In this document: piece after piece, positions 29,277 to 59,400 of the stretch | How the letters are laid out: each line of letters starts with the position of its first letter | How positions within the stretch are numbered: position 1 is the first letter of the stretch | Assembly: GCA_016185525.1 (NCBI GenBank) | Contig: JACPNK010000005.1 | Location: 28,473 to 92,472 of the forward strand | Reading direction: 5' to 3' | Length of the DNA: 64,000 nt | From: Candidatus Yanofskybacteria bacterium | GTDB lineage: Bacteria; Patescibacteriota; Minisyncoccia; 2-02-FULL-40-12; IGHO2-12-FULL-4 | The notes under the pieces: generated by a model | Told to the model about the DNA's origin: nothing | The model's database searches: none | Seen by the model: the letters and a program-made list of their open reading frames with translations, nothing else | Program-made: the position numbers and the translations under genes

Positions 29277-30939
29277 GCCTAGAACCTAGAACCTGAAAGC
29301 TAGAAGCTATCAGTACACTTAAACTAGCCAGTAAAATTGGCCAATCTCCTAGTTTATTATACAATGTTTTCTTGCTATTTAATACAATGTCGCCTGTTAA
29401 TATCTGAAATCCCTGCACTTGGAACGGATAAGTGCTTTCAGCACGAGAGTGCAAATCCGTTCCAAGTGAGGGGTCAAAACCCGTTTCGGAAGCTTCTCTT
29501 GAGATTTTTCCCGAGCCCGAAACCACAAAAGATGGTCCATAATTTGCGGCATAGATTAGGTATTTGTTGTTTTCAGCGGCGCGCAAAGAAGCCATAGCTT
29601 TAACTTGTCTGATTAAGTCTTTGGAACCGTTAGCAAAAGCGAAACTGCCTTGCACAGCTATGAGTTGTCCGCCAGACAAGGAAATATTTCTGGCCAAAGA
29701 CGGCGAAGAAATATCGGAACAAACCAAAGCCCCTACCCCCACCTGAGGACTGTCCTCAGTAAGATTGGGAAAATTAATAGCGGAGGGTGGCTGATGACCG
29801 CTTTGTAGCTCTTCAAAATTTTTAAGCTCTTCGGAATCAATGCCTAAAACTTTATCTAACAGGCGGAAGAGATAAGGCGCGTATTCCCCTCCCGGAGTCA
29901 AGAGTTTTTTGTCATAATCTCCAACCACGCCGCTTTTGGAATCCAAGTATATGGTTTTAGATTTTTTCAGAAAATTTTCCTGGATATGCGAGTTGTCTAT
30001 GATGGCGGTTTTGGAAGAAAATAGATTGTTGAAAAAAAGGCCGACATTCAAAGTATTGCCGAATAAACTTATGTTAGTAAAAAAATTGCTGGCTTCGGGA
30101 AAAACTATCAGTTTGGTTTCGGGTTCTTCTCTACTTATTTTATTCATCAGTTCAAGCTGTTTTTTGAAAAAAGAAAGCTGTTCTTGGGGGCTGTAGTTTT
30201 TTTTGCTTGGGATATAACTTTGAATGACCGCTACTTTAATCTTTTCGGCATTATTGTTGGAAGGAACGAACCAGTCAAATGGAAAGTAAGAAAGAGAAGT
30301 TAAAACAGCGATAAAAATCCAAAGTTTTTTGTATTGTCTTTTTTCCAAAAAAAGAAAAATTAAAACGGCGGCGAGAGCGACAAAAAAAGTAACGCCGTAA
30401 ATGCCAAGCAGAGACGATAACTTAAGAATCAAAGTGTTAGCATGCAAGTTGTAAGCAAGATTGCCGGCTGTCCAATCGGGTGAAATTGTATTGCCCGGGC
30501 TGAACCAGAGAATTGAAATTATAAATGATCTTAAATACTCAAACCAAACAAATATTGAAGGAAAAACAATCAAAGATGTCCAGCTTGTTTTCTTCTCAAT
30601 TTTCTTGAAAAGCCAAAATGCCGTTGCCCAGAGAAATGACATTGCCAGAGCGGTCAAAAGCCAAGCGAAAGCTATCAAACCGGCGGCAAGGTAGTGATTT
30701 TCAAAACCGAGTCCTTCAAGAGGATAAGTGTCCCAAAACCATCTGAAGACGAATAAGAAATAAACCAAACCAAACCAAAAGCCGGTTGAAAAAGCTTTCT
30801 GCGGGCGGATTTCAAGAAAAACAAAGAGAAGTATTAAAGCAAAAAATACCAGCCAGCCTAAGCCGAAAAAAGGCAAAGAAAAAGCCAAAATTAAACCGCC
30901 TAAAACTGCAAAGATAAGATTTGGCTTAATTTTCTCCAT
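29260..30939 (-). CDS. lnt: apolipoprotein N-acyltransferase-like (8-TM domain plus carbon-nitrogen hydrolase domain)
   Basis: 559 aa; CN-hydrolase triad candidates are E in IVFPEAS, K in DKKLLTPGGEYAP and C in GALVCSDI. The hydrophobic N-terminal half is typical of Lnt. Confidence 0.65.
   Translation of the reverse strand: MEKIKPNLIFAVLGGLILAFSLPFFGLGWLVFFALILLFVFLEIRPQKAFSTGFWFGLVYFLFVFRWFWDTYPLEGLGFENHYLAAGLIAFAWLLTALAMSFLWATAFWLFKKIEKKTSWTSLIVFPSIFVWFEYLRSFIISILWFSPGNTISPDWTAGNLAYNLHANTLILKLSSLLGIYGVTFFVALAAVLIFLFLEKRQYKKLWIFIAVLTSLSYFPFDWFVPSNNNAEKIKVAVIQSYIPSKKNYSPQEQLSFFKKQLELMNKISREEPETKLIVFPEASNFFTNISLFGNTLNVGLFFNNLFSSKTAIIDNSHIQENFLKKSKTIYLDSKSGVVGDYDKKLLTPGGEYAPYLFRLLDKVLGIDSEELKNFEELQSGHQPPSAINFPNLTEDSPQVGVGALVCSDISSPSLARNISLSGGQLIAVQGSFAFANGSKDLIRQVKAMASLRAAENNKYLIYAANYGPSFVVSGSGKISREASETGFDPSLGTDLHSRAESTYPFQVQGFQILTGDIVLNSKKTLYNKLGDWPILLASLSVLIASSFQVLGSRHDKII
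29277..29312. repeat. CTAG-rich repeat (right flank), partner of 28905-28937
   Basis: cctagaacctagaacctgaaagctagaagcta; it overlaps the 3-prime end of the lnt-like ORF. Confidence 0.5.
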
Positions 30940-31694
30940 TCATTTAATGTCAGCGACTCCGGACGCCTTTTTTCGTCAATGCCGGCTTCTTGAAGCTTTT
31001 TTCCAAGGGCCGCCCTTGGAAGGCTTAGTCCGGCGGAGAGACTGTTTAATAATTGTTTTCTTTTGCCGTTGAAAGCCAAACGGGCTAATTTCATAATTTT
31101 TTCAACTTGTTCTTTTTCCGTCGGACCTTGGTCTTTAGGTGTCATTTTTATTAAAGCCGAATCAACTTTCGGTACTGGCCGGAAATTTCCTTTGGAAATA
31201 TATTTTAAAATTTTTGCGTCTGCGTAGAACCGAACCGACAAAGCCAGCAAACTCATTTTGGAAGGTTTAGCGACTATTCTTTGGGCTACTTCTTTCTGTA
31301 CCATGAACAAAATTAACTTTGGTGAAGGCCATTCGCTAAGCACTCTTCTTAAAAGTTGCGATGTCAAATAATAAGGGATATTCCCCACTACCTTGTATTT
31401 CCAAGGTTCGACCTTGATCAGATTAAGGTCGAACCTTAATATGTCTCCCTCAATCATTGTAACATTTTTTTGATTTTTAAACTTGGTTTGTAGAACCGGA
31501 ACTAAGTTTCGGTCTTTTTCAACGGCAATAATTTTTGCTCCGGTTTCCGCCAGTTTTTCGGTCAACAGACCTGTGCCGGCGCCGACTTCCAGCACAGTGT
31601 CGCTAGCTGAAATTTCAGCCATTTCAACTATGGATTTAAGTATACTGGCGTTTCTTAGAAAATTTTGACCCAATTTTCTTGACGGCCTTATCAT
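30900..31694 (-). CDS. rsmA: 16S rRNA (adenine1518/1519-N6)-dimethyltransferase
   Basis: 264 aa; KLGQNFL and SAM motif VLEVGAGTGLLT. Confidence 0.9.
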   Translation of the reverse strand: MIRPSRKLGQNFLRNASILKSIVEMAEISASDTVLEVGAGTGLLTEKLAETGAKIIAVEKDRNLVPVLQTKFKNQKNVTMIEGDILRFDLNLIKVEPWKYKVVGNIPYYLTSQLLRRVLSEWPSPKLILFMVQKEVAQRIVAKPSKMSLLALSVRFYADAKILKYISKGNFRPVPKVDSALIKMTPKDQGPTEKEQVEKIMKLARLAFNGKRKQLLNSLSAGLSLPRAALGKKLQEAGIDEKRRPESLTLNEWRKLSQILSLQF

Positions 31695-31715
31695 GCTTGT
31701 ATCTTATTTAGCGCA

Positions 31716-31861
31716 GCAGACACAGCCTCTGAAGTCGCTGAGGAGGCAGTTTGCATGGTTGAGATTAAGTATAGTTATTCTTAACTTAATCTCAAAACTG
31801 CCGACGTCGCGAGCGAACGGAGTCGCTGGCGTAGTGAGCGTGCTGAAGAGGCTGTGTCTGC
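31716..31861. repeat. 146 bp MITE-like element, copy 1 (15 bp terminal inverted repeats GCAGACACAGCCTCT)
   Basis: About 89% identical to the reverse complement of 45448-45593. Termini are gcagacacagcctct...agaggctgtgtctgc. Confidence 0.6.
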
Positions 31862-31876
31862 GAAGCTAAAAAGTTC

Positions 31877-34800
31877 CTAGTCATAATCTATAAAATCTTC
31901 GTAATTAAAGTCCCGCCTAAACGGTTTTTTTGTATTTTCAGATATAAAATCTTCGGGTATTTCAGAGACGAATCTTGAAACCGGATTAAATTGAGACGAA
32001 CCATAAACCATGCGGTTTTGGCAGTGAGTCAAATAAAGTTTTTCTTTGGCTCTGGTGATTCCAACATAGCAAAGTCTTCTCTCTTCCTCCAACTCAACCG
32101 GATCAGTAATTGATCTGGGATGAGGAAACAGACCTTCTTCCATGCCTGCTAAAAAAACGGTTGGAAATTCCAGGCCTTTGGAAGCGTGCATGGTCATCAG
32201 GGTTGCGCTTTTTTCTTGGTTTTTAATTTGGTCGGTTTCTTGTATCAACGAAACCTCTTCCAGAAAAACCGGCAGAGATTCGCGCGACTTTAGGTTGTCG
32301 TATTTTGACGTAACTGTCAGAAGTTCTTTTACGTTCTCCCAGCGGGATTCGTGGTCAACAGTTTTTTCCTGAAGGTATTTTTGGTAGTCAATATTTTGGA
32401 GGAGTTTTTTTATGAGTTTTGAAAGGTAAGACTCGTCTAGTTTTTCTTCCAAAGCATTTATGGTTTTGCTCAATGAAGCCAAACCGGACAAAGCTTTCTT
32501 ATCTAATTCTTCTCTGTGATTTTTGAAAAGCTCAAAAACATTTCCGGCAGATTTTTGTTTTTGAATTTCCAGTATCCTTTCAAATGTTTTCTTGCCGATT
32601 CCTCTGCTTGGTACGTTGTGAATTCTTTCTAAACTAAAGTTGTCGCTCGGATTGAGCAGAAGCCTTAGATAAGCCAAGACGTCTTTAATTTCTTTTCTTT
32701 CATAAAATTTTAAGCCGCCAATAATTTTGTAGGGCAGACCGGCTTTCAGCATGGCTTCTTCAACAGCGCGGGACTGGGCGTGAGTGCGGTATAAAACACA
32801 AAAGTTGTTTAAGTCTTGTCCTTTTTTTAGTCCCTTTTTTATTTCGTCGGTTATAAATTTACCCTCTTCTCTTTCATTTCCTAATTCGGCAAGCAGTATT
32901 TTTTCGCCTTCCTGATTTTCAGTCCAGAGATTTTTGTGTCTTTGGAATTTATTGTTTGAAATAATATTTTGGGCGGCGGCTAAGATGTTCTGGGTTGAGC
33001 GGTAGTTTTGCTCCAAAAAAACAATTTTTGCCTCCGGATAGTCTCTTTCAAAACTTAAAATGTTGCGCAAATCTGCTTGTCGGAATCCGTAAATAGAGTT
33101 ATGGACAGCAAAATTGTTGGCAGTATAAGTGTGTGTTCTTTCAATATCTAGGTCGTAAACGGGGCCGTTATAATCAATTTTTTTAATATCAATGATTTTT
33201 TCGTTAACAAATTTTTTACCGTTAAAAACAGGAACAACCATGTGGGAATGCAAGTGAGATGCAGGCATAAAGTCAAAGTTAATGTCGGTGATTAAGGCGT
33301 GTTTTGTGACTTCAACGCCACACAATTCGGCTATTTGGCCGGCAAATTCTTCTGCCTTTTTATTATCGGCAAATACTTTCTCAATTCGCCAAGTATTAGC
33401 TTTGCCTTTTCTGACTTTCAGTCCGGAGTCTGTGAGTAATTTTCTAATTTTTTTGTTTTGGTTGTTTATACTGACTCTTGCTCTCCGTGACTTTGCTCTA
33501 GTTCCGCCATCGGAAGATGAAAAGTAGCACAGATTAACGGAAGTTCTCTTGGTTTGAAATTTTGTGGTTCCTTGCGGTCGGTGGTGGGGATAACTAAACG
33601 ACAAATCCAGATCAAGCATTAATTTTTTAGCGCGTTCAGCGCTTGGTATTTCTCGGAAAAGCTTTTCAATTTGTTTTTGGGTAATTAAACCGGAATCCGG
33701 GCCATTGCCTCTGTCAGCAAAAAAGACGGTAGTGGGTATGCCATAGTTAAAAGCATAATAAGACTCCCAAAAATGAGCTTCGGAACGGTTAGGCGAAAGT
33801 TTTAGAATCCACATTTTGTCAGCTCTTTCTTGATTAGCCCGCACATTTAGTCCAAGTCTGCTTTTGTTTTTTTTTATCTGTCTTATTCCCACAGTAACGC
33901 CTATTCTGTATCCTAATTTCTTAGAATACATCAAGTAAGTAAGAAAAAAATTTTTAGAGGGAAGAAGTTTACTAAACAAAATATGGTTGGGGGTGGTTTG
34001 TAAGACATTTCCATTTGCAGTGGTTATTTCCAGTAGCGGCCCCTTATATCGAAATCTTCTTGCATTTAATACTTTTGCCGGGCGAGTTAAACTTCTTCCG
34101 GCTGGCGACAAAATGTTCTCCCCTTTACTGACTTTTTCAATCTCTTTTAAGCCCTTTTCGGTTTTAATTTTTGTTTTTGGCGGAAAACATTGGTAATCAT
34201 CCCCAACAGCCATGATATTTTTGTGTTTTTGAGCCAGCATTTTCAGAAAAAGATACTGCGGTTTGTTGGTGTCCTGATATTCATCAACCAAAATGTATCT
34301 AAAGCGGTCTTGGTATTTTTCCAGTATGCTTTTTCCCTGTTTTAACATTTTTACGGTCCAAAAAAGCAGATCGTCAAAATCCATAGCGTTGCTGTTTTCC
34401 AAGTTTTTCTGGTAGAGAGGATAAATTTTAGCGACGATTTTTTCAAAAAATTCCTTAGCCGAGCCGCTGTATTCAGCCGGTCCGGCCAGGTTGGTTTTGG
34501 CTTCAGATATTCTGGCAAGCACGGCGCGGGGATTTGTTTTTTTTGTGTCAATTTCCAGTTCTTCCATTACTTTCTTGATAACGCCAAGCTGATCCTCGGT
34601 ATCGTAAATGACAAAGTTGGAAGTGTAAGGCGAGTTAAATTTTCCGATTTCGTTTCTTAACAACCTTGCCGATATGGAGTGAAACGTCCCCAGCATAGGA
34701 AAACCTAAATTTTGAATTTTGCCTGCCCCGCCGTTGGCGTATGACCTGGGGAATTTTGAATTTTGAATTAAGCTTATAACCCGCTCCCTCATCTCCCCCG

Positions 34801-34993
34801 CGGCTTTGTTTGTGAAAGTAACCGCTAAGATATTTTCTGGTCTTACTCCCTGCTGGATTAAGTGAGCAGTCCGATGGGTCAGCACCTTTGTTTTACCGCT
34901 GCCAGCGGCGGCAATAACCAAAACCGGACCCTCTGTGGCCCGTACCGCTTCAACTTGTTTTTCGTTTAAACCCTCAAAAAGATTTTTAGACAT
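31877..34993 (-). CDS. UvrD/PcrA-family ATP-dependent DNA helicase interrupted by an intein
   Basis: Walker A AAAGSGKTKVL and DEYQDTN. Motif III VGDDYQ is split from SIYGFRQAD by about 367 aa. C-terminal helicase motifs (QNYRST, VTRAKEKL) are intact. Confidence 0.85.
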   Translation of the reverse strand: MSKNLFEGLNEKQVEAVRATEGPVLVIAAAGSGKTKVLTHRTAHLIQQGVRPENILAVTFTNKAAGEMRERVISLIQNSKFPRSYANGGAGKIQNLGFPMLGTFHSISARLLRNEIGKFNSPYTSNFVIYDTEDQLGVIKKVMEELEIDTKKTNPRAVLARISEAKTNLAGPAEYSGSAKEFFEKIVAKIYPLYQKNLENSNAMDFDDLLFWTVKMLKQGKSILEKYQDRFRYILVDEYQDTNKPQYLFLKMLAQKHKNIMAVGDDYQCFPPKTKIKTEKGLKEIEKVSKGENILSPAGRSLTRPAKVLNARRFRYKGPLLEITTANGNVLQTTPNHILFSKLLPSKNFFLTYLMYSKKLGYRIGVTVGIRQIKKNKSRLGLNVRANQERADKMWILKLSPNRSEAHFWESYYAFNYGIPTTVFFADRGNGPDSGLITQKQIEKLFREIPSAERAKKLMLDLDLSFSYPHHRPQGTTKFQTKRTSVNLCYFSSSDGGTRAKSRRARVSINNQNKKIRKLLTDSGLKVRKGKANTWRIEKVFADNKKAEEFAGQIAELCGVEVTKHALITDINFDFMPASHLHSHMVVPVFNGKKFVNEKIIDIKKIDYNGPVYDLDIERTHTYTANNFAVHNSIYGFRQADLRNILSFERDYPEAKIVFLEQNYRSTQNILAAAQNIISNNKFQRHKNLWTENQEGEKILLAELGNEREEGKFITDEIKKGLKKGQDLNNFCVLYRTHAQSRAVEEAMLKAGLPYKIIGGLKFYERKEIKDVLAYLRLLLNPSDNFSLERIHNVPSRGIGKKTFERILEIQKQKSAGNVFELFKNHREELDKKALSGLASLSKTINALEEKLDESYLSKLIKKLLQNIDYQKYLQEKTVDHESRWENVKELLTVTSKYDNLKSRESLPVFLEEVSLIQETDQIKNQEKSATLMTMHASKGLEFPTVFLAGMEEGLFPHPRSITDPVELEEERRLCYVGITRAKEKLYLTHCQNRMVYGSSQFNPVSRFVSEIPEDFISENTKKPFRRDFNYEDFIDYD
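33098..34198 (-). mobile_element. intein (about 367 aa) in helicase motif III
   Basis: Begins CFPPKTKIKTEKGLKEI... (Cys1) and ends ...NNFAVHN followed by the +1 Ser of SIYGFR. No clear LAGLIDADG motif was seen, so the endonuclease domain may be degenerate or absent. Confidence 0.7.
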
Positions 34994-44374: not shown

Positions 44375-44378
44375 CACT

Positions 44379-44461: not shown

Positions 44462-44478
44462 CTGAGGACAGTCCTCAG
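44462..44478. repeat. palindrome CTGAGGACAGTCCTCAG (family A), immediately 3-prime of a tRNA
   Basis: Perfect 17 nt palindrome. Family members are also at 29744-29760, 45651-45692 and 59331-59345. Confidence 0.6.
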
Positions 44479-45593: not shown

Positions 45594-45650
45594 TATGCTT
45601 TATTGGTCGTCGGCTCTCAAAGCATTTAACCACCCATTTTCGAACCTTTT

Positions 45651-45692
45651 CCGAGGACTGTCCTTAAATCTGAAAAAAGGACAGTCCTCGGA
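45651..45692. repeat. family A palindrome as a split hairpin (15 bp stem, 12 nt loop)
   Basis: ccgaggactgtcctt-aaatctgaaaaa-aggacagtcctcgg. Confidence 0.55.
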
Positions 45693-47085: not shown

Positions 47086-47167
47086 TGTGGTATTGTGTAA
47101 AATCGAAACTTGCCTCAAAACCAAATCCGTGATATCTTTGTCAATATAGTCAAGTTGGTTTTCCGCA

Positions 47168-48639: not shown

Positions 48640-48641
48640 AT

Positions 48642-49793: not shown

Positions 49794-49845
49794 AGAGGGC
49801 TCTCCGCCCTCTTTAAATTTTAGAAGTAATGTGGTAAAATTTTTT

Positions 49846-50079
49846 CAAATGCCCACCCCCGCTATTACCAAAAAATTAACCCAAAAAGGTGACTTTGTAA
49901 TCATTCCTCGTAAAGGATACGAGGAGTTTTTAGCTTGGCGAGGAACAAACAAGAGAATAGAGACTTACACTCCGACACCTGCCGAGAAAAGGGCTATTGC
50001 CAAAGCAAAACGAAACTTTACCAAAGGAAATTATGTAACTTGGGAAGAACTGAAACATGAGTTGGCAAGTAATCGTTGA
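49846..50079 (+). CDS. type II antitoxin (copy 1), paralog of 52212-52424
   Basis: MPTPAITKKLTQKGDFVIIPRKGYEEFLAWRG...; the first 25 aa are identical to copy 2. The track ORF is 5-prime extended. Confidence 0.5.
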   Translation, partial: QMPTPAITKKLTQKGDFVIIPRKGYEEFLAWRGTNKRIETYTPTPAEKRAIAKAKRNFTKGNYVTWEELKHELASNR

Positions 50080-50082
50080 TAA

Positions 50083-50219
50083 ATCAGCCAGAAAACAACT
50101 CCAGCGTTTACCAAAAAGAGGTTTCCAGTATTTACAGAATTTTTTACACAATTTATTTTAAAGAAAGGATAATTTACATTTTTGAAATCAAGCGTCGAAC
50201 CACGACTACTTATTCGTAA
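50083..50219 (+). pseudogene. RelE/ParE toxin remnant (internally deleted)
   Basis: It retains 5-prime and 3-prime DNA similarity to relE at 52428-52679 (...gaaatcaagcgtcgaaccacgactacttattcgtaa) but is about 115 nt shorter. Confidence 0.5.
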
Positions 50220-51041
50220 ATGAAAAACCAAAAAGGATTCGCTCTTGTTCCTGTAATCTTGGTGCTTATCATCGCTGGCATGGGCATCTGGTTTTTGCTT
50301 ACCAAAAGCCTCGCTCCGGATCAGCTCCGACAATATGTTAAAGACGGCAAAATAGACCGAGATTTTGCATTTTGGTTAGGAAAAAATGAAAGCATGGACG
50401 CACTTGTTATTTTCAAGAGTAATGATGAAAAGAAAAGATTTTTAAACACTTTTTCTAAAAATGACTACATCCTTTTGGAGGACTACGGTGGATTCGAAAC
50501 GGCCTATATAACAATCCCAAACATGGATGCCGCCGGTAGAATTTTATCAGATTCAGGAGTAGTAAAGTTTTCACCATACGGATGGGCTTTTTCGCAATTT
50601 GACGTCAAGGCTAGAGCAAAAACAAAAGCGTATCGTGATGATAAATACGGTTACGAAGTTAAAACCTCCAACTTTTACGCTCCTATCAAGAAACTATCGT
50701 CGACAGCTTTAAGAATAGGAGATGAGGCTATATTCCAGCAAATTTCAGTATTTGATAACCAAACGATTGGGGGCAGGATAAAGACAGCAGACATTCAAGA
50801 GATTTTAAAAACTGTTCGTCCGGGGTTAAGCTTAAGTAGATCAATTAAGAAATCTACTGTGGAGTATTATCTGGGAGGTAAAAAAGGTAAAGCGGTTATT
50901 TTTACCTTGGCACCGGAAGACAAGTACACTTATATTCTTGTGGAAAAAGATAACAAATTATACGAATTTTTCACTCCCGGTGATCTAAAAAATGGCGGGT
51001 CAGATGCAGAAACCTACTCCACCTTTAAATTTATTAAGTAA
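50220..51041 (+). CDS. pilin-like secreted protein, paralog P1 (MKNQKGF leader, C-terminal TFKFIK)
   Basis: 273 aa; prepilin-like N-terminus MKNQKGFALVPVILVLIIAG without Glu5; ends STFKFIK. Confidence 0.5.
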   Translation: MKNQKGFALVPVILVLIIAGMGIWFLLTKSLAPDQLRQYVKDGKIDRDFAFWLGKNESMDALVIFKSNDEKKRFLNTFSKNDYILLEDYGGFETAYITIPNMDAAGRILSDSGVVKFSPYGWAFSQFDVKARAKTKAYRDDKYGYEVKTSNFYAPIKKLSSTALRIGDEAIFQQISVFDNQTIGGRIKTADIQEILKTVRPGLSLSRSIKKSTVEYYLGGKKGKAVIFTLAPEDKYTYILVEKDNKLYEFFTPGDLKNGGSDAETYSTFKFIK

Positions 51042-51316
51042 TGTGGTATAGTGAACCCATGCCAAAAGTCAATAAAAAAATCTACTCTTACTCGGTATTT
51101 TATGAATCGGATCCGGACGGCGGTTATATTGTAACCGCACCAACCCTACCCGGTTGTTATAGCCAAGGCGATACACTAGAAGAAGCCGAAAAAAATATCA
51201 GAGAAGCGATCGAGCTTTACATAGAAAGTTTGGTTGCCCACCGTGAACCTATTCCGAAGGAAGTAAAATCTTTTCAGGGCACTGTGGTAATTCCTGTTTC
51301 ACCCCCTGCTCGATAG
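51041..51316 (+). CDS. hicB: HicB-family antitoxin
   Basis: YSVFYESDPDGGYIVTAPTLPGCYSQGDTLEEAEKNIREAIELYIE. Confidence 0.75.
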   Translation: MWYSEPMPKVNKKIYSYSVFYESDPDGGYIVTAPTLPGCYSQGDTLEEAEKNIREAIELYIESLVAHREPIPKEVKSFQGTVVIPVSPPAR

Positions 51317-51317
51317 C

Positions 51318-51548
51318 ATGGTTAAGATTCCTGCTTTAACTGCCAAAAAAGTCATCAAAGTTCTCAAAAGAATAGGATTTTTAGAAGATCGTCAAAAAGG
51401 TAGCCATCTAATTTTGTTTAACTCAAAAACCAACACGAGAACAGTTGTGCCAGTTCACGCTGGAAAAACACTGAAAAAGCCTCTTGTACGAGCAATTATT
51501 AATGATACTAAATTAACCGTCAAAGAATTTGTAGAGTTACTAAAATGA
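51318..51548 (+). CDS. hicA: HicA-family mRNA interferase toxin
   Basis: 76 aa; KVLKRIGFLEDRQKGSHLIL...VVPVHAGKTLKKPLVRAIIN. Confidence 0.75.
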   Translation: MVKIPALTAKKVIKVLKRIGFLEDRQKGSHLILFNSKTNTRTVVPVHAGKTLKKPLVRAIINDTKLTVKEFVELLK

Positions 51549-52192
51549 AAAACCAAAAAGGATTTTCTAAAATAGCGGTGATTATTATTGCTGCAATTGT
51601 GATCGCAGTTGCCGGCTGGCGGTATTTATGGAGACCATACACGAATATCTACCCAGTTACTCCCACTCCGACAGTTAGTTCAACTACTGACCCCACCGCT
51701 GGCTCGCCCCGTGACGAAATTTTACGGGGCTGGCAAACTTACCGCAATGAGCAGTATGGGTTTGAGTTCCAAACTCCCGCCAACTGGATTATTGAAAATG
51801 AAAGTCGAGACGTCGGAAACGGTGTGGCGTTTATTACTGATTTTAAATCCCCGGACTTCAAACAGGCTGGGGATATGATGAATGAAGTGGATGTTTTGAG
51901 TGGCTATTTGCTCAATATTCATTTACAATATCCTTCAAATATTAAAACTTTTAGCGAACTGACAGAATTTTTGAAGCTCGGTCGTGGCGGCCACATTCAG
52001 TTGAGTGAGAAATTGATTTTGGTAGATGGTGAAAAGACCATCTTACATGACTTAGGAGATTATCGGCAAGGTAGCTTGAAGGATGTGCATTTTCTTCACG
52101 GGGATAAATGGTTCACTATTACCTTTTCTTACGCGAATTACGAAGATGATCAATTCAACCAAATCCTCTCCACCTTTAAATTTATTAAGTAA
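51545..52192 (+). CDS. pilin-like secreted protein, paralog P2
   Basis: 215 aa; MKNQKGFSKIAVIIIAAIVIAVAG...; central WQTYRNEQYGFEFQTPANW shared with P3; ends STFKFIK. Confidence 0.5.
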   Translation: MKNQKGFSKIAVIIIAAIVIAVAGWRYLWRPYTNIYPVTPTPTVSSTTDPTAGSPRDEILRGWQTYRNEQYGFEFQTPANWIIENESRDVGNGVAFITDFKSPDFKQAGDMMNEVDVLSGYLLNIHLQYPSNIKTFSELTEFLKLGRGGHIQLSEKLILVDGEKTILHDLGDYRQGSLKDVHFLHGDKWFTITFSYANYEDDQFNQILSTFKFIK

Positions 52193-52211
52193 TATGGTAA
52201 AATTTTTTCAA

Positions 52212-52424
52212 ATGCCCACCCCCGCTATTACCAAAAAATTAACCCAAAAAGGTGACTTTGTAATCATTCCTCGTAAAGAATACGAGGAGTTTTTGAAATT
52301 TAACTCTAGGCCGGTATATAAACCGACAAAAACTGAGTCGCGTATGATCAAACGAGCCAGAGAGGATTTTAAAAAAGGCAACTACATAACTCTGGAGGAG
52401 CTAAAAAAGAAATTAGGGTTTTGA
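52212..52424 (+). CDS. type II antitoxin (copy 2), partner of relE
   Basis: MPTPAITKKLTQKGDFVIIPRKEYEEFLKF... Confidence 0.55.
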   Translation: MPTPAITKKLTQKGDFVIIPRKEYEEFLKFNSRPVYKPTKTESRMIKRAREDFKKGNYITLEELKKKLGF

Positions 52425-52427
52425 TTA

Positions 52428-52679
52428 ATGTGGAGCGTTGTTGTAAGAAAATCTGCCGAAAAACAGTTGGATAGACTATCCAAATCCGCTCAAGTCAAAA
52501 TAATTCTTGCTCTGGAGACTTTCAAAAGCAATCCATTTAGCGGCGATATCGCCAATCTCAAAGACAGTATCTGGCGCCGGCGTGTCGGCTCCTATCGCAT
52601 TACATTTGAACTGATCAAATTCAGACGGATAATTTATGTAATTGAAATCAAGCGTCGGACCACAACTACTTATTCGTAA
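52428..52679 (+). CDS. relE: RelE/ParE-family toxin
   Basis: 83 aa; KSAEKQLDRLSKSAQVKIILALETFKSNPF...RRRVGSYRITFEL...VIEIKRR. Confidence 0.75.
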   Translation: MWSVVVRKSAEKQLDRLSKSAQVKIILALETFKSNPFSGDIANLKDSIWRRRVGSYRITFELIKFRRIIYVIEIKRRTTTTYS

Positions 52680-52680
52680 A

Positions 52681-53280
52681 ATGAAACAACTCTTTCAACA
52701 ATTTCAGAATCAAAAAGGCTTTGCCATCATCCCTCTCATAGTTATCCTCGCTTTAGCCGGCATTGGGGTTTATTGGTTTACCTCCGGAAGAACAATTCCG
52801 GGTGTATCTTGGCTTATGCCAACCCCAGATCCGACTGCTGGGTGGCAGACATACAGAAATGAGCAGTATGGGTTTGAGGTGAAGTATCCGGAGGGGTGGC
52901 AAATAAATGAAAATAATAGTCCGCTAACTTCACAATGGGTTCAAGTATTTTTAAACTCTAATCAGTTACAATCACAGAAAGAACCCCAGGTTCTAGACGA
53001 TTTTGAGATCAAAGTAAGCAAAGAATACAAACCAGGGTGGGAAAATTATTTTTTTGACCACAGTTCTAACGGTGAAATCACAATAAATAATGTCTATTGG
53101 AAAACCTTTTTGTTGCCAACTGGTACCGGTGGAGACGCGGCGTCAGGACAGACTTTTTTACCAGTTTTCGGACTTCAGTCGGTTCATAATAACTCTCTTT
53201 TTTCAATAAAATTTTTTAATCAAACCAATTTAACATCTTTACAAAACCAAATCCTCGCCACCTTTAAATTTATTAAGTAA
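52681..53280 (+). CDS. pilin-like secreted protein, paralog P3
   Basis: MKQLFQQFQNQKGFAIIPLIVILALAG...; WQTYRNEQYGFEVKYPEGW; ends ATFKFIK. The track ORF starts at 52642; the likely start is 52681, just after the relE stop. Confidence 0.5.
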   Translation: MKQLFQQFQNQKGFAIIPLIVILALAGIGVYWFTSGRTIPGVSWLMPTPDPTAGWQTYRNEQYGFEVKYPEGWQINENNSPLTSQWVQVFLNSNQLQSQKEPQVLDDFEIKVSKEYKPGWENYFFDHSSNGEITINNVYWKTFLLPTGTGGDAASGQTFLPVFGLQSVHNNSLFSIKFFNQTNLTSLQNQILATFKFIK

Positions 53281-53424
53281 TGTGGTAGAGTGCTTTTATT
53301 AACTTTGACAAGTAAGTTTTGCGGGGAGGAACGGAAGTAATGGGGCTTTGGCCAAAGCGTTCAAAAAGTTGAGCTTTTTGGCCAGAATCAGTTACTCTCC
53401 TCTCGTTTACTTGTTACACAATTT

Positions 53425-55521
53425 GTGGATATAAAAACATATTCCGAAGAGTTTGCGGGCAAGAAGCTCTTTGTTGAAATTGGCCGTTTGGCCGGACAGG
53501 CCAACGGCTCTTGCCGTGTGCAGTACGGCGATTCTACGGTGCTGGTAACAGCCACGATGTCGGCTCATCCAAAAAGCGCCGACTACTTTCCTTTGTCGGT
53601 GGACTACGAAGAAAAGTATTACGCCGCCGGAAAGATCAAGGGCTCAAAATGGATCAAGCGCGAAACCCGTCCGTCGGAGGAAGCGATTCTCACCAGCCGG
53701 GTAATTGACCGCTCAATCAGGCCAAGGTTTGACCACAACATAAGAAACGAGGTACAGGTTGTGCCAACTGTCTTAACTTTTGACGGAGTCAACGACCCCG
53801 ACATAGTGGCGCTTTTTGGCGCTTCTTTGGCTTTGATGATATCTGACATTCCTTTTGCTGGCCCGGTGGCTGGCGTTCGGATTGGTAAAATCGCGGGCAA
53901 ATTAGTTATAAACCCAACTTATGCCGAACGCACCCAAAGCGACTTTGACATAATTGTCGCCGGCACGGCCAACAAAATAAATATGATTGAGGCCGGCGGT
54001 AAGATTATCCCGGAAAAAGACATGGCTGAAGCTATAAATCATGGCTTCAAAGAAATACAAAAATTAACCAAACTACAGCAGAAAATTGCGGATGATTTTA
54101 AGGTTGAGAAGAAAAAACTGGACATTTTCAGCCACGACGAGGCTTTGCACAAGCTAGTCAGCGATTTTGTTGCGCCAAGACTTGAAAAGGTGCTTTACAC
54201 GCCTCACAAACAAGAGTATGTGGAAGGCCTTCACAGAACACAGGACGAGCTTGCTGAATATATCAAGGAACAATTCAAAGAGCATCCGGAGTTAGATGGC
54301 AAGCTTAAAGAAGCAAACGTTATCTTTGAAGAAGAAATTGACCGGATCGTCCACAAAAATATTTTGGAGTCGGAAAAAAGACCGGATGGCAGAAAAGTTG
54401 ATGAACTCCGGGCAATTAACGCTGAAGTTGCCGTTCTCCCCCACTCTCACGGCACCGGCTTGTTTAACCGAGGCACGACTCAAGCGCTATCGTCACTTAC
54501 TCTAGCGGCACCGGGCATGGAGCAATGGATTGAAACCATGGAAATTGAACTGACTAAAAAACGCTTTATGCATCACTATGTTTTTCCGCCTTTTAGTGTC
54601 GGCGAGGTTGGCAGAATGGGTTTTGCCGGCCGAAGAGAAATTGGCCACGGCGCTTTGGCTGAAAGAGCTTTGGAGCCGATTATCCCTTCCAAAGAAGAAT
54701 TTCCTTATACAATCAGGGTTGTTTCTGAAATCCTATCTTCCAACGGCTCATCTTCTATGGCCTCGGTTTGCGGCGCCTCTTTGGCTTTGATGGACGGCGG
54801 TGTGCCGGTCAAAACGCCGGCGGCGGGAATTGCCATGGGTTTAATGTTTTCCGCCGAAGGCGATAAGTATAAAGTCCTAACCGATATTCAAGGTCCGGAG
54901 GACCACCATGGCGATATGGACTTAAAAGTTGCCGGCACTAGAGATGGCATTACGGCTATGCAGATGGATGTAAAAATTGAAGGCATCACGCCGGAAATAC
55001 TGGAAAAGGCGCTAGAACAAACCAAAAAAGCAAGGTTAGAAATACTGGATCATATGGCCAAGGCCATATCAGAGCCAAGAAAAGAACTCTCATCTTTTGC
55101 ACCTAGGGTTAAAATTATTAAAATAAATCCGGAAAAGATTCGCACCGTAATCGGTCCGCAGGGCAAAATGATAAACGAAATTATAGACAAAACCGGCGTG
55201 CAAATTGACATTGAAGACGACGGCTCGGTGTTCATAACTTCAGACAGCGCCGAAGGCATGAAAAAGGCAATCTTGTGGATTGAAGATATAACTTACGAAG
55301 CCAAACCGGGCGACGAGTTTGACGGCAAAGTTGTAAAAATTATGGATTTCGGGGCTTTTGTTGAGTTTAAACCCGGACAAGACGGCATGGTCCATGTTTC
55401 TGAAATTTCAAACGAGCATATCCGCCGGCCGTCAGATGTTCTAAAAATTGGACAAAGCGTGCATGTGCGTGTGAAAAACATCGACGAGTATGGTAGAATA
55501 AACTTATCCATGAAAAAATAA
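53425..55521 (+). CDS. pnp: polyribonucleotide nucleotidyltransferase (PNPase)
   Basis: 698 aa; two RNase PH domains, KH (GPQGKMINEII) and S1 (GQSVHVRVKNID). Apparent GTG start. Confidence 0.9.
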   Translation: MDIKTYSEEFAGKKLFVEIGRLAGQANGSCRVQYGDSTVLVTATMSAHPKSADYFPLSVDYEEKYYAAGKIKGSKWIKRETRPSEEAILTSRVIDRSIRPRFDHNIRNEVQVVPTVLTFDGVNDPDIVALFGASLALMISDIPFAGPVAGVRIGKIAGKLVINPTYAERTQSDFDIIVAGTANKINMIEAGGKIIPEKDMAEAINHGFKEIQKLTKLQQKIADDFKVEKKKLDIFSHDEALHKLVSDFVAPRLEKVLYTPHKQEYVEGLHRTQDELAEYIKEQFKEHPELDGKLKEANVIFEEEIDRIVHKNILESEKRPDGRKVDELRAINAEVAVLPHSHGTGLFNRGTTQALSSLTLAAPGMEQWIETMEIELTKKRFMHHYVFPPFSVGEVGRMGFAGRREIGHGALAERALEPIIPSKEEFPYTIRVVSEILSSNGSSSMASVCGASLALMDGGVPVKTPAAGIAMGLMFSAEGDKYKVLTDIQGPEDHHGDMDLKVAGTRDGITAMQMDVKIEGITPEILEKALEQTKKARLEILDHMAKAISEPRKELSSFAPRVKIIKINPEKIRTVIGPQGKMINEIIDKTGVQIDIEDDGSVFITSDSAEGMKKAILWIEDITYEAKPGDEFDGKVVKIMDFGAFVEFKPGQDGMVHVSEISNEHIRRPSDVLKIGQSVHVRVKNIDEYGRINLSMKK

Positions 55522-55537
55522 TTTTGGATAAGTTTAT

Positions 55538-56917
55538 ATGGCAACAAATCCTCCTCCTTCAAATTTACCGATAGCAAAAGATTCAGAGTCAACCCCTCAA
55601 TTGCCGCCTGTCCGTCCAGCAGACGGGCCTCTAGCTTCTTTGCCTACCCGTCCGGCCCGCCTGCCGGACGGGCAGGCAGGCGGGCCTGTATTACAACCGC
55701 CAAAACCAACGACCCCAGTTACTATTCCGATACCAGTCGTACCCAAACCTCCGCTAACCGCTACTCCACTTCCACCAATCATCACCCCTTCTGCTAAAAG
55801 TTCACCTAACACTTTGTCCCCCATCCTTCCACGACCAGTCCAACCTGGTCTAGGAACCAGCAACATTAGCGCCAAATCCTCCATTAGAACCATGGAAAGT
55901 GACATTAAATCTGTTGGTCAAGGAGCTCCGGCAAAGGGTGTTGAAGTAATCATACCCAAATCCACACCTCTACCGTCTATTGGCCAACCTGAATCTGACA
56001 GGTTACCAAAAAAGCCACTACCGCCTTCGGCAAGTGTAAGTATTGCCGGAGCAGAAAAACGTTCCGTACTTCCTAATGTCAGACCATTTATTCCAGAACA
56101 AGTCAAGGATAAGCCTGCTACATCAGCGGAAATTGCCGTACCGCCCAAAAAGACCCAAATATTCAGCCGCTGGACTCTAATTGCAATTATTGTTCTTGCG
56201 GTTTTAGGAAGCGGCGGGTACTGGTTCTACTTCTTAAGAGAAGGCGAAACTCCTGCCACCGTCTCTTCGCCGACTCCCACTTTCAAGCCCGATTTTCTTA
56301 AACCGCTAAAAACAATTTTTACCGCTAATGATTCGGTTATCATCCCCGACCTTGCTTCCATAGAAAACTTGGAACCGCTTAACTTAGCCTTATCTCAAAT
56401 AGTGATAAGCGAAGGTTCAAAAAATTTATTTTTAGAACCCAAAAATGAAGCTGAAGAACCCATAGCTTTTTCAAGCTTTGCCAGCAGATTCCTTGGCAAC
56501 TCAAACCAGAGCCTTCTTGGTAACATAACAGATAAAAGATTTGGTTTGGTAATATCGCGCCAGCAAGAAAAGTTTGACTTTCTGGGCGAACCGGTTTTGG
56601 GAGCAGAGTTGGAAACCAGAACCGCTTTGATTGTTGAGGTTACAGATGCAATTTCTGCCAAAACAGCCATGTCGGAATGGGAGCAAATCCTCCCGGAAGC
56701 TTTATTGGATTTCTTTCAGATTACAGATGAATCGGACCAAATCTCTTTTGATGACAACATATACCGAGACGTGGGTATACGATTTATGAACTTTCCTTCA
56801 CCCGACAGATCCATAGATTATGCTTTTGTTTCCTCGGCGACGGGTAGCACCTACCTTGTAATCGCTAACTCTCGTGAGCAAATATACTCAATTACCGATA
56901 CTCTTTTAGGATTTTAA
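55538..56917 (+). CDS. Pro/Thr-rich membrane-anchored protein (hypothetical)
   Basis: 459 aa; about 200 aa Pro-rich N-terminal region, one TM (WTLIAIIVLAVLGSGGYWFYFL), C-terminal globular domain. Confidence 0.45.
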   Translation: MATNPPPSNLPIAKDSESTPQLPPVRPADGPLASLPTRPARLPDGQAGGPVLQPPKPTTPVTIPIPVVPKPPLTATPLPPIITPSAKSSPNTLSPILPRPVQPGLGTSNISAKSSIRTMESDIKSVGQGAPAKGVEVIIPKSTPLPSIGQPESDRLPKKPLPPSASVSIAGAEKRSVLPNVRPFIPEQVKDKPATSAEIAVPPKKTQIFSRWTLIAIIVLAVLGSGGYWFYFLREGETPATVSSPTPTFKPDFLKPLKTIFTANDSVIIPDLASIENLEPLNLALSQIVISEGSKNLFLEPKNEAEEPIAFSSFASRFLGNSNQSLLGNITDKRFGLVISRQQEKFDFLGEPVLGAELETRTALIVEVTDAISAKTAMSEWEQILPEALLDFFQITDESDQISFDDNIYRDVGIRFMNFPSPDRSIDYAFVSSATGSTYLVIANSREQIYSITDTLLGF

Positions 56918-56921
56918 CACC

Positions 56922-56941
56922 TTATCAACACCTGTTGATAA
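56922..56941. promoter_or_regulatory. inverted pair of DnaA-box-like 9-mers TTATCAACA cc TGTTGATAA upstream of the dksA/traR-like gene
   Basis: Perfect 9 bp inverted repeat; the same 9-mer class occurs in the dnaA-dnaN spacer. Confidence 0.3.
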
Positions 56942-57122
56942 CTCTCGTTGACTTTTTTTATTTAACCTGATACCCTAAATGTAGATCTTTATCTGGTTGC
57001 CACCGCTTTTATGGGGCAACCGGTACCATTTTATTTTTAGGGCACTTGCCTGCTCAAGTAAGTTATTTTGATAGGCGATAGTGCCCTTTTTTTTGTTTTT
57101 TCTAGATTTGTGTTAACCTTAG

Positions 57123-57506
57123 TTGTTATTTATGACCAAAGATGAACAACAAAAACTTTTAGAGAGCCTGCGAAAAGAAGAAGCTGAAATCCTAACCGAA
57201 TTGGCAACTTTCGCAAAAAAAGATCCTAATACAGAGGATGACTTTATAGTCCCCTTTCCCAACGAAGGCACAGGAATTGATGAAAATGCCAGAGAAATAG
57301 AGGAGTTTGAAAGACTTAATATACTTAAAAACAATCTTGTAACCAGGCTAAGGGATGTAAGGGCTACAATCAGAAAAATCAAGGAAGGGATTTACGGCCA
57401 GTGCGAAACTTGTTCTTCAAAAATCATTTCAACCCGCTTAAAAGTCATGCCCATAGCCAGATTCTGCATAGATTGTGCCAATAAACAAAGGACTAAATCT
57501 TCATAA
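57123..57506 (+). CDS. DksA/TraR-family C4 zinc-finger regulator
   Basis: 127 aa; CETCSSKI...CIDCANKQ (CxxC-17-CxxC) after a coiled-coil region. Confidence 0.7.
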   Translation: MLFMTKDEQQKLLESLRKEEAEILTELATFAKKDPNTEDDFIVPFPNEGTGIDENAREIEEFERLNILKNNLVTRLRDVRATIRKIKEGIYGQCETCSSKIISTRLKVMPIARFCIDCANKQRTKSS

Positions 57507-57517
57507 TAGAAAAAGTT

Positions 57518-59059
57518 ATGTCTGTGGTTGTTTCATCGGCCGCTCTAAGCGGTTTGGAGGCTGTAAAAATTGATGTAGAAGTTGATTCTTTTCCCGGTTT
57601 ACATTTTTTCAATATCGTTGGTCTACCGGACAAAAGCGTTGAAGAGTCAAAAGATAGGCTGGACTCAGCTATTAGAAATAGCGGTCTTGTTAACCCAAAA
57701 TCTAAAAATTTAAGAATAATAGTCAATCTGGCCCCGGCAAATATAAAAAAAGAGGGCTCGTCGTTTGACCTGCCAATTACCATAGGTTATCTGGCCGCAA
57801 CGTCACAAATTAAGTTAGACCCAAAGAAAGCTCGCCTTTTTGCAGGCGAGCTTTCTTTGGATGGCTCTTTAAGACCAGTCAATGGTATTCTGTCCATGGC
57901 AATTTTGGCCCATAAAATGGGCTTTTATGAGATCTTGGTACCCAAATCAAACGCCAAAGAAGCGGCACTGGTCAACAACATAAAAGTTGTTGGTGTGAAT
58001 AACTTGAAAGAACTAGTTTCATACCTAAAAAGTGAGATTGAAATTGAGCCTGAAAAACAAACTCCGTGGAATCAAGTTGGTCACAATAATCAGGAAAGTG
58101 ACTATGACTTTGCAAATATTAAAGGTCAGGAAGGGGCAAAAAGAGCCCTTTTGGTAGCCGCGGCAGGCGGACACAATATTTTGATGTTTGGACCACCGGG
58201 GTCAGGAAAAACAATACTGGCAAGGGCTTTAGCCACAATTTTGCCTTCCATGAGCCGTGAAGAAGCCATAGATGTCACGAAAATATACAGTGTTGCCGGT
58301 TTAACCAAAGAAAAACCATTCATAAACCAAAGACCGTTCAGAAGCCCGCACCACACTGTTTCAGCCCCAGGAATCATAGGCGGAGGTTCTATCCCCCATC
58401 CTGGAGAAATCAGCTTGGCGCACCGAGGAGTGCTTTTTCTGGACGAACTGCCGGAATTTCAAAGAAATGTATTAGAATCCCTAAGACAGCCTCTAGAGGA
58501 GGGCTGTGTTACAGTTGCCAGAGCCTCCGGTTCAAGCCATTTTCCGGCAAGATTTATGCTTGTAGCCTCCATGAACCCCTGCCCTTGCGGAAATTTTGGC
58601 AGTGAGACAGAAGTCTGTCTTTGCCCGCCAGTAAATGTTGTCCGATATAAGAAAAAAATCTCCGGCCCGCTTTTAGACCGGATAGATATTCAGTTTTATG
58701 TTTCGCGCGAAACATTTGCTAATCTTAAAGACACCAATTCTTCAGAATCTTCGTTAGAATTAAGGAAAAAGGTTGAAAAAGCAAGAGAAATTCAGGCCGA
58801 AAGACTAAAAAAATTTAACATTCTCACTAATTCCGAAGTTAGTTTTAAGAACGTACAAAAAATTTGTAATTTGACACCGGAAGCAGAATTAATACTCGGC
58901 AGATTTGTTGAAAAACATGGAATTTCGGGCAGGGGCTATCACCGAATGTTAAAAATAAGCCGGACGATAGCCGATTTAGAGAATAGCAACACTATAACCG
59001 CCAATCATATTAAAGAAGCGGTTAGTTTTAGACTTCATGATCTAGGGAAAATGTCATAG
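57518..59059 (+). CDS. comM: YifB/ComM-family Mg-chelatase-like AAA+ ATPase
   Basis: 513 aa; Lon-like N-terminal domain, Walker A GPPGSGKT, Walker B VLFLDELPEF, C-terminal domain. Confidence 0.85.
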   Translation: MSVVVSSAALSGLEAVKIDVEVDSFPGLHFFNIVGLPDKSVEESKDRLDSAIRNSGLVNPKSKNLRIIVNLAPANIKKEGSSFDLPITIGYLAATSQIKLDPKKARLFAGELSLDGSLRPVNGILSMAILAHKMGFYEILVPKSNAKEAALVNNIKVVGVNNLKELVSYLKSEIEIEPEKQTPWNQVGHNNQESDYDFANIKGQEGAKRALLVAAAGGHNILMFGPPGSGKTILARALATILPSMSREEAIDVTKIYSVAGLTKEKPFINQRPFRSPHHTVSAPGIIGGGSIPHPGEISLAHRGVLFLDELPEFQRNVLESLRQPLEEGCVTVARASGSSHFPARFMLVASMNPCPCGNFGSETEVCLCPPVNVVRYKKKISGPLLDRIDIQFYVSRETFANLKDTNSSESSLELRKKVEKAREIQAERLKKFNILTNSEVSFKNVQKICNLTPEAELILGRFVEKHGISGRGYHRMLKISRTIADLENSNTITANHIKEAVSFRLHDLGKMS

Positions 59060-59215
59060 CGCCAAAATTTGGCGCTAGTGCCATTTGGCACAGCGGTGGC
59101 GCGCCACTGCGCCATCCTCCGCCAACACTGCGCCACTTGGCGCGCTATGTGGCGCTCTGTTTGGCACAGTGGCGCTACTACCGGCGGCGCTAACTTGACA
59201 CGAGTGATTGGGGAA
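59060..59215. repeat. GC-rich degenerate tandem repeat (TGGCGC / TTGGCACAG units)
   Basis: gcgccaaaatttggcgctagtgccatttggcacagcggtggcgcgccactgcgcc...tgtttggcacagtggcgctactaccggcggcgc. Confidence 0.35.
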
Positions 59216-59239
59216 TTTTAGTAAATATTGCTTCTGGGT

Positions 59240-59400
59240 CGCTGTGAAGTTGCAAAGGCGAAGTTTCTTAGCCGGTGCTTTAGCCCGAATAGAATCGCCT
59301 GAGGGTTGCTTGGTTGCGAGCAGTTTAGCCGGAGGACAGTCCTCCGTTTGAGAAAAGAAGCAGCATCTCTAGGTTTTTGTAGAATGTTTCGTGCGAAACA
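59240..59400. repeat. left inverted-repeat flank of the M23 peptidase gene, includes a family A palindrome at 59331-59345
   Basis: gagggttgcttggttgcgagcag (59300-59322) is the reverse complement of 60790-60812. gtttcgtgcgaaac pairs with gtttcgcgcgaaac at 60843. Confidence 0.45.

Follow-up and report, generated by a model that had tools for sequence, protein, structure and literature searches.

The 64,000-nucleotide stretch of DNA analysed here (the window) is from the candidate phyla radiation (CPR) organism Candidatus Yanofskybacteria, contig JACPNK010000005.1. It contains four loci with a short palindrome, GAGGAC(A/T)GTCCTC, which are very probably copies of a repeat of the REP type (repetitive extragenic palindrome). 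The cognate enzyme would be a CPR-wide, IS200-like Y1/HUH transposase of about 235 amino acids (aa) that resembles the REP-associated tyrosine transposases (RAYTs). The four loci are read as REP units of a CPR RAYT-like family because their features match the published pattern of REP/RAYT systems, or REPtrons. A first-pass annotation of the sequence had described the palindromes as REP-like and listed a mobile palindrome among the options; the association with a transposase supports this proposal and makes it specific. The system is of a known kind in an atypical form, and it occurs in a phylum for which no report was found: literature searches with sequence strings, and with RAYT, REPIN or REP combined with CPR names, yielded no description of REP/RAYT in CPR. 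The loci are as follows.

29743..29759, minus strand: REP unit 1, CTGAGGAC(T/A)GTCCTCAG, inside an lnt-like open reading frame (ORF)
44462..44478, strand not applicable: REP unit 2, CTGAGGACAGTCCTCAG, palindromic over 44461-44479
45650..45692, strand not applicable: REP doublet, similar to a REP doublet forming a hairpin (REPIN), with inverted units TCCGAGGACTGTCCTT / AAGGACAGTCCTCGGA 11 nt apart
59330..59346, strand not applicable: REP unit 4, CGGAGGACAGTCCTCCG

The repeat family is non-random in the window. Exact GAGGACWGTCCTC occurs at three sites (29745-29757, 44464-44476 and 59332-59344) and in none of 100 dinucleotide-preserving shuffles of the window, which rules out a chance origin of the repeats. 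Allowing up to two mismatches adds two units (45653-45665 and 45677-45689) and brings the count to 5 versus 0.62 expected. The core GGACNGTCC is present 5 times versus 0.26 expected, AGGACAGTCCTC is the commonest 12-mer of the window that is not of low complexity, and the wider form C-N-GAGGAC-W-GTCCTC-N-G is common to all window copies. The recurrence at four loci far above chance, as proposed in the first-pass annotation, is thereby borne out, with three exact copies and one two-unit hairpin. Its coordinates were exact for unit 2 and for the 15-mer at 59331-59345, and were one nucleotide too high for unit 1 (given as 29744-29760); the split version was placed to within one base, its arms being 16 nt rather than the 15 bp given for the stem. 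The 13-nt core contains no stop codon in any frame, and the CTGAGG variant has TGA in one frame, as read from the sequence.

The hexamer GAGGAC by itself is seen 21 times in the window versus 18-19 expected. Because this half-site is not enriched, the repeated unit is the whole palindrome, and a non-palindromic half-site resembling an uptake sequence is ruled out. The 8-mer GACAGTCC is found 6 times in the window on both strands, 5 times within palindromes, with about 3.3 expected. The half-site gacagtcc reported in the hairpin upstream of yraN does exist (60912-60919), but one extra 8-mer is within chance and has no significance. Selection for a DNA-uptake sequence, or for a site of restriction-modification or methylation, is a highly improbable cause of the enrichment of the motif. 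The palindrome is short and specific, as such sites are, and CPR bacteria are thought to take up DNA. However, besides the lack of half-site enrichment, no restriction-modification gene lies beside any copy examined, uptake sequences occur about once per kb and so are far denser than the copies found here, and the association is with a Y1 transposase. The restriction-modification site suggested earlier thus finds no evidence in its favour.

The association with a transposase was found in loci from other genomes (L numbers), covering 8-20 kb per genome. In L023, three palindromes lie within 800 nt, at 16 nt before, inside and 26 nt after a 234-aa ORF that matches the Pfam family Y1_Tnp (PF01797, 'Transposase IS200 like') with E = 2.4e-9. 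A Y1_Tnp gene adjoins the palindrome in four loci that had been selected by the palindrome: L023 and, by tblastn, L005, L035 and L100. L005 carries the exact CTGAGGACAGTCCTCAG of the window 21 nt ahead of the start codon, nested between two GAGAACWGTTCTC units. As a test without repeat-based selection, seven loci were fetched via protein homologues only (L157, L158, L159 (= L160), L161 (= L162), L163, L164 and L165). The family pattern is GAG-R-W-C-N-G-W-Y-CTC, with the extended core C-N-GAG-R-W-C-N-G-W-Y-CTC-N-G. A palindrome precedes the start codon by 12-37 nt in all seven protein-fetched loci and follows the stop codon by 6-127 nt in six, five of them within 17 nt; L158 has none downstream. 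Taken over the 11 related CPR loci, the upstream palindrome is present in every one and a copy at or just past the 3′ end in 10, the locus without it being L100, which ends inside the transposase gene. Unrelated control loci, 265 kb in total, contain no match to the strict pattern. In the related CPR loci, the co-occurring, putatively DNA-binding protein that the first-pass annotation recommended looking for is the product of the IS200-like Y1/HUH transposase gene, with palindromes just upstream in 11/11 loci.

A third, in-frame copy lies inside the transposase gene at +172 to +208 nt in 8 of the 11 loci. The internal segment is not an insertion, being present in all family members. Its translation is GGQSS where the locus is of the GAGGAC type and REQFS where it is of the GAGAAC type, and it falls in a predicted loop that precedes the HUH motif. 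The sequence of window copy 4, CGGAGGACAGTCCTCCG, is found exactly at all three positions in L164 and is also carried by L023, so that an identical 17-mer flanks and sits within the transposase gene of both. The upstream, internal and downstream copies of one locus have a common lineage-specific outer stem (e.g., TGGCAGAGAAC.GTTCTCTGCCA in L165), which indicates concerted evolution. Inverted doublets also occur outside the window, in L161 (9899/9952 and 11931/11956) and in L035 (2097/2144 and 2942/2981). One gene copy is present in every locus. Gene order is partly shared: L159 and L165 both have the gene upstream of ClpB-MraZ-RsmH, and L157 and L164 have a common downstream Cohesin/Big gene cluster. 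These partly conserved neighbourhoods suggest that the transposase gene may descend vertically. Separately, L035 (Adlerbacteria) carries at 2097-2993 a related non-palindromic variant, CGGAGGACCGACCTCCG, with its complement, as seven units around and inside the transposase gene, and one of these units supplies the C-terminal residues of the transposase (ITEDRPPQTR).

The transposase is about 235 aa long and has a conserved C-terminal extension, KWSSY.DY. The motifs M-P-N-H-I-H-L (HUH; H88, H90) and Y-I-H-x-N (catalytic Tyr, Y148) are invariant in comparisons of 13 and of 25 sequences. A search returned 3247 homologues at E <= 1e-5; the best 120 of these are about 235 aa long and 65-100% identical, and the few with a name are annotated as 'transposase' of Parcubacteria or Pacebacteria. 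With an AlphaFold model as query, the top Foldseek match in the PDB is 4ER8_A (E = 1.1e-5, TM 0.51 on the target), the E. coli REP associated tyrosine transposase bound to a REP hairpin. The next matches are the TnpA proteins of IS200, IS608 and ISDra2. The modelled protein thus appears to have the fold of a REP-associated transposase.

The stem structure is conserved via compensatory changes, beyond sequence conservation alone. Pairs were counted in 50 copies, taken from the transposase loci and the window. At the variable inner position, 24 copies have G-C, 21 have A-T and 5 have G-T, so that none is unpaired there, and all four Watson-Crick types occur at the N-N′ pair. Paired cells amount to 82.9% versus 69.1% in shuffles, and the covariation score is 0.418 versus 0.164 in shuffles, with 0 of 500 shuffles reaching 0.418 and slid controls giving at most 0.166. 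The copies had been pre-selected for at least 5/6 core pairs, so that only the outer pairs and the changes of pair type are unbiased in these counts.

The palindrome is also widespread in CPR. A reference-genome collection was scanned for CNGAGGACWGTCCTCNG, and the counts refer to the matches listed. At least 118 stretches contain it, of which at least about 31 are from CPR or from low-GC unclassified metagenome-assembled genomes (MAGs). Most matches are single hits in unrelated bacteria, as expected for a pattern of 15-16 bases in about 600 Gb. Several hits per assembly are seen only in CPR and low-GC unclassified MAGs: at least six copies on three contigs in CAZYLA, at least three contigs in CAISEE, and at least two contigs each in CAZBBD, JAEUQV, CSMAG_1227 and CSMAG_2716. 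Among the matches listed, the 17-mer is heavily over-represented in assemblies assigned to CPR. The palindrome of CPR MAGs is usually lengthened by lineage-specific complementary bases (e.g., TTAGCGGAGGACWGTCCTCCGCTAA). Assemblies with the same core carry the labels Yanofsky-, Adler-, Kaiser-, Nealson- and Moranbacteria and 'Saccharibacteria', not all of which are reliable, as in the CAYZNJ MAG, which is labelled Saccharibacteria and has a Yanofskybacteria-like Lnt. Copies inside genes are not confined to the window. L017 has the palindrome in frame in uvrC at 5098-5114 (PPEDSPQE), and long ORFs carry in-frame copies at L057 5017, L078 6393, L013 4846, L096 1870 and L043 4099. Judged by eye from the translations, the hosts of these other copies are SMC, tRNA-dihydrouridine synthase (Dus), KsgA/RsmA, IleRS and a ComEC-like protein. 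The frames used in the CPR MAG ORFs read E-D-S/C-P or G-G-Q-S-S.

Three of the four window loci are intergenic and one is intragenic. Unit 2 begins 10 nt past the end of tRNA-Arg(GCG) at 44452, directly after this gene as the first-pass annotation had it, and 65 nt ahead of the ATG of a gene for an NAD-dependent epimerase. The doublet has two 16-nt arms (45650-45665 and 45677-45692) that are 100% complementary across the 11-nt spacer. It lies between a miniature inverted-repeat transposable element (MITE) that follows the epimerase gene and a consensus promoter at 45744-45773. Unit 4 is situated between the convergent genes for a ComM/ChlI-like protein (57518-59059, plus strand) and an M23/LysM peptidase (59401-60489, minus strand); its 17-mer is 55 nt from the end of the peptidase ORF at 59401, so that it flanks this gene as described before. 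Folded as DNA, the single units (17-19 nt palindromes) reach -5.9 to -7.7 kcal/mol, with -7.7 kcal/mol (z = -2.75) for unit 2 and -6.9 kcal/mol (z = -3.1) for unit 4, and the doublet reaches -18.5 kcal/mol (z = -7.8).

Hairpins downstream of genes raise the question of a function in RNA. It is very unlikely that the copies are primarily RNA hairpins, as terminators or 3′-end stabilisers whose apical sequences are alike by convergence. Three window sites are downstream of genes, T-runs follow some related copies (e.g., L023 1629-1645 and L039), and REPs often act as RNA elements downstream of ORFs (PMC3733652). However, the window copies are followed by GGGCTTG, GTTTGAG and TCTGACC and not by a T-run. 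A terminator scan of 43800-61000 gave 31 terminator-like sites, none of which is a copy of the palindrome, and the candidate terminator role of the first-pass annotation is ruled out for the window copies on these two grounds. An Rfam scan of the window at gathering threshold finds 7 tRNAs and no other RNA family, which rules out a known RNA family as the identity of the repeat. Moreover, identical 13-17-mers across lineages and the tie to a transposase are unexpected from convergence, and one copy lies inside lnt. A secondary role in RNA may exist and is compatible with a REP-type repeat.

Copies come and go at orthologous sites, a presence/absence polymorphism of the kind that marks mobility. 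A metagenome scan recovered relatives of the epimerase locus in L122, L123, L124 and L137 (93, 87, 85 and 94% epimerase identity, respectively). None of the four contains GGACNGTCC anywhere. The unit is absent from the spacer between tRNA-Arg and the epimerase gene in L123 and L124, where the spacer is short, and the aligned region downstream of the epimerase gene in L122-L124 has neither the doublet nor any match to the family. The promoter next to the doublet site is kept in L122 although the doublet is absent. This promoter is a perfect sigma-70 consensus (TTGACA-18-TATAAT with TG) and lies at about 7975-8012 in L122; the genes downstream of it differ between the window and this 93%-identity relative. 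The MITE beside the doublet is about 150 nt long with 15-nt terminal inverted repeats GCAGACACAGCCTCT, and is present in opposite orientations at 31716-31863 and 45448-45595. The second copy happens to sit 55 nt from the doublet; the first has no palindrome beside it, and the MITE is unrelated to the palindromes.

The intragenic copy also differs in presence between relatives. The lnt-like ORF (29260-30939, minus strand) encodes LNT_N and CN_hydrolase domains, and its product is 80% identical to a protein named Candidatus Yanofskybacteria. The earlier statement that unit 1 is an in-frame copy encoding NLTEDSPQV was correct for the minus strand, the palindrome itself reading T-E-D-S-P-Q. In an alignment of 25 Lnt proteins, seven extra residues (EDSPQ and two more) are present in the window, in an identical Logan copy (P0001) and in P0002, and are missing from about 20 other homologues. 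At the DNA level, L120 (the locus of P0002) has the same CTGAGGACAGTCCTCAG in lnt, and L121 (P0003, protein 78% identical) runs from ACT straight into TTG GGA with no insertion. The palindrome is therefore part of a 21-nt in-frame insertion, which answers the earlier suggestion to check whether lnt homologues lack the segment. It lies about 10 codons ahead of the catalytic Cys407, and the catalytic residues E282, K344 and C407 are intact. The Lnt of P0004, known from protein only, contains 'PEDSPP', which would fit CCGGAGGACAGTCCTCCG. A second, unrelated hairpin is present in lnt at 29411-29473, with 19-nt arms that are 89% complementary, and is not repeated elsewhere in the window. The 23 additional in-frame residues to which it corresponds, DPSLGTDLHSRAESTYPFQVQGF, are confined to the window Lnt and the identical Logan copy and are absent from L120 and every other Lnt homologue compared.

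This turnover bears on whether the palindrome could be the operator of a dimeric DNA-binding regulator of neighbouring genes, conserved in CPR. The perfect dyad symmetry would suit such a site, L100 has a related copy just upstream of a -10 box, and copies stand directly ahead of the transposase start codon. Yet one of the four window sites is an insertion inside an ORF, and the other three follow genes or lie between convergent ones. Close relatives do not conserve the sites at orthologous positions, a distance of only 7 bp separates the half-site centres, and the compensatory changes preserve pairing and not a fixed recognition sequence. An operator is accordingly a most improbable explanation.

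A REP-type repeat agrees with these properties. As in the BIME-TnpA-REP system of E. coli (BIME, bacterial interspersed mosaic element) and the REPIN-RAYT system of Pseudomonas, the CPR palindromes are short hairpins that occur singly and as inverted doublets, mostly downstream of genes, the window doublet at 45650-45692 corresponding to a REPIN. The Y1/HUH gene is bracketed by its own repeat type as in REPtrons, with 4ER8 as its best fold match, and the CPR copies lie in frame inside genes and inside the transposase gene, as reported for some REP subclasses (PMC6006769; PMC3733652). There are also differences. The CPR unit is a perfect palindrome of 13-17 nt with a one-base centre, whereas REPs usually measure 20-40 nt, and its core is common to distant lineages, whereas REP sequences are usually species-specific. 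Unlike RAYTs, the CPR protein is longer, with a conserved C-terminal extension, falls below the NCBIfam cut-off for RAYTs, and has the internal copy upstream of HUH and not between HUH and Tyr. RAYTs have been surveyed mainly in complete genomes of cultivated bacteria and track with larger genomes (PMC6006769), whereas the CPR hosts have genomes of about 1 Mb.

Other repeat systems share some of these features. The TnpA enzymes of the IS200/IS605 family (IS200, IS608 and ISDra2) have the same catalytic fold and motifs, and the hairpins beside the CPR gene would likewise be recognised on single-stranded DNA. In contrast to that family, the window palindromes stand alone, far from any transposase, both flanks of the gene carry the same sequence, no multi-copy full-length element is seen in the loci and there is no tnpB. 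Rickettsia palindromic elements also reside in frame in housekeeping genes without inactivating them, as do the copies in lnt and, in L017, uvrC. Those elements measure about 100-150 bp and add 30-50 residues, whereas the CPR insertion in lnt is 21 nt and adds 7 residues, and the two have no sequence relationship. The cyanobacterial HIP1 sequence (highly iterated palindrome 1, GCGATCGC) is a very short specific palindrome that occurs between and within genes across a phylum. The CPR palindrome is likewise very short and highly specific and lies in and between genes. HIP1 differs in being 8 bp long, with thousands of copies per genome, and no dedicated transposase gene is known to be flanked by it.

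Several observations weigh against assigning the window loci to a REP/RAYT system. Because tblastn and a profile search find neither a Y1 transposase gene nor a remnant of one in the 64-kb window, only family resemblance links this genome to the system. In canonical REPs the foot of the hairpin carries a guide, GT[AG]G or CGTC (PMC6006769, PMC3733652); GTAG, GTGG and CGTC are all absent at the flanks of 83 unique CPR copies, which show only C-N...N-G and A/T-rich outer pairs. The sole NCBIfam match of the transposase, REP_Tyr_transpos (NF047646), reaches 37-40 bits where the cut-off is 80. Searching the PDB by sequence gave nothing significant, and the AlphaFold model is only moderate (pLDDT 65; 70-90 in the core, poor in the C-terminal third). 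The share of CPR in the reference collection, about 1%, is our own estimate, on which the multi-hit pattern does not depend. For the two intergenic sites compared with relatives, ordinary intergenic turnover may be the cause of absence. The 17/17 identity of the lnt copy in L120 is no evidence of selection, and an argument to that effect was withdrawn, as DNA identity between the two genes is 82% and perfect matches make up 8% of 17-nt windows. Finally, among the strict-pattern copies of the protein-fetched loci, 24 of 26 are less than 400 nt away from the gene and dispersed ones are sparse, which fits an insertion sequence (IS) with terminal hairpins too.

Since most protein-fetched copies sit at the gene, an IS200-like element with terminal hairpins is the main rival explanation. 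The palindromes would then be the left and right end hairpins of an autonomous IS of the IS200/IS605 type and the window copies its scars or remnants. Such an element would account for the tight bracketing of the gene by palindromes in all 11 loci, for the gene neighbourhoods that differ between most loci, and for L161, where the copies nearest to the gene on its two sides are oriented alike, as are the ends of IS200/IS605. However, the 64-kb window lacks a transposase and its four sites are solitary, and about 27 of the 31 palindrome-selected CPR loci (among the matches listed) are without a transposase within 8 kb. Both 'ends' are the same palindrome and not a distinct left and right, with a third copy inside the ORF. 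Further, no locus has more than one copy of the gene, protein identity is 65-80% among many lineages, with neighbourhoods that are partly conserved, and inverted doublets occur away from the gene (window 45650-45692; L161 11931/11956). An autonomous IS is thus an unlikely source of the window copies, if less so than the other alternatives.

For a REP/RAYT-type system, a mechanism can be proposed that is modelled on E. coli TnpA-REP and IS608. The hairpin would be bound by the enzyme while the DNA is single-stranded, probably at the replication fork, and would be cut and rejoined at its foot. Cutting and rejoining could copy or excise single units and inverted doublets, and this is the route by which we infer that the repeats were mobilised and spread. 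New copies would persist mainly downstream of genes. Copies inside genes would be kept where, as in lnt, the insertion adds a multiple of three nucleotides within a loop that tolerates it. On this reading, the source genome would be expected to carry a single Y1 gene with CTGAGGAC.../CGGAGGAC... units on either side, and solitary copies numbering in the tens. To our knowledge, the cellular role of RAYTs is unsettled and REP mobilisation has not been demonstrated in vivo.

It is possible, and put forward tentatively, that the enzyme is a phylum-wide, vertically inherited RAYT-like protein acting on an ultra-short, guide-less REP, whose core is recognisable across deep lineages and whose gene contains its own in-frame REP (GGQSS/REQFS) that changes in step with the flanks. 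If so, the internal hairpin would function in cis, to autoregulate the gene or to serve as a master template from which the repeats are regenerated, and streamlined genomes of about 1 Mb would tolerate or use REPs that are often inside housekeeping genes. The RAYT-like gene is 65-80% identical in thousands of CPR sequences. A compact gene of this kind and a perfect palindrome of 13 nt would form a very simple enzyme-substrate pair for biochemistry. Even intergenic-poor genomes of about 1 Mb keep such repeats, partly lodged in frame in genes such as lnt and uvrC. In practice, the palindromes can mark strain-variable sites and explain small lineage-specific insertions in CPR proteins, and they can break or confuse assemblies and gene calls.

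The 17-mer of unit 4 (59330-59346), CGGAGGACAGTCCTCCG, is letter-identical to the synthetic Gal4 upstream activating sequence (UAS) 17-mer of eukaryotic reporter constructs, the only literature match to the sequence string. Vector contamination or a relation to the Gal4 UAS is rejected, and the identity is taken as coincidence, since there is a single copy in a unique CPR context. The window contains further palindromes and repeats. The longest palindrome, at 9051-9099, is perfect with arms of 24+24 nt (TAAATAAATAACCCGGCACTTTCT / complement) and is unrelated to the REP family. Another perfect palindrome, of 20+20 nt with a 1-nt centre (47044-47084), lies over the start codon of a gene for an XerC/D-like tyrosine recombinase (46092-47048, minus strand). 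An exact 14-nt palindrome, GTTTCGCGCGAAAC, occurs twice (58700-58713 and 60843-60856) and may represent a further small repeat family. CCGGCAGGCAGGC and its complement occur three times (41312-41324, 60713-60735), twice as a palindromic cluster upstream of yraN. A promoter-like repeat of 52 nt (…TTTAAATTTATTAAGTAATGTGGTAAAAT…) is found four times in 49794-53296 at a spacing of about 1.1-1.2 kb, ahead of paralogous small genes, and longer repeats of 121 nt and 54 nt in the same region show recent duplication. Finally, a gene for a UvrD-like helicase (31877-34993, minus strand) is interrupted by an intein, with Pfam matches to Intein_splicing and Hint in the middle of the helicase domains.

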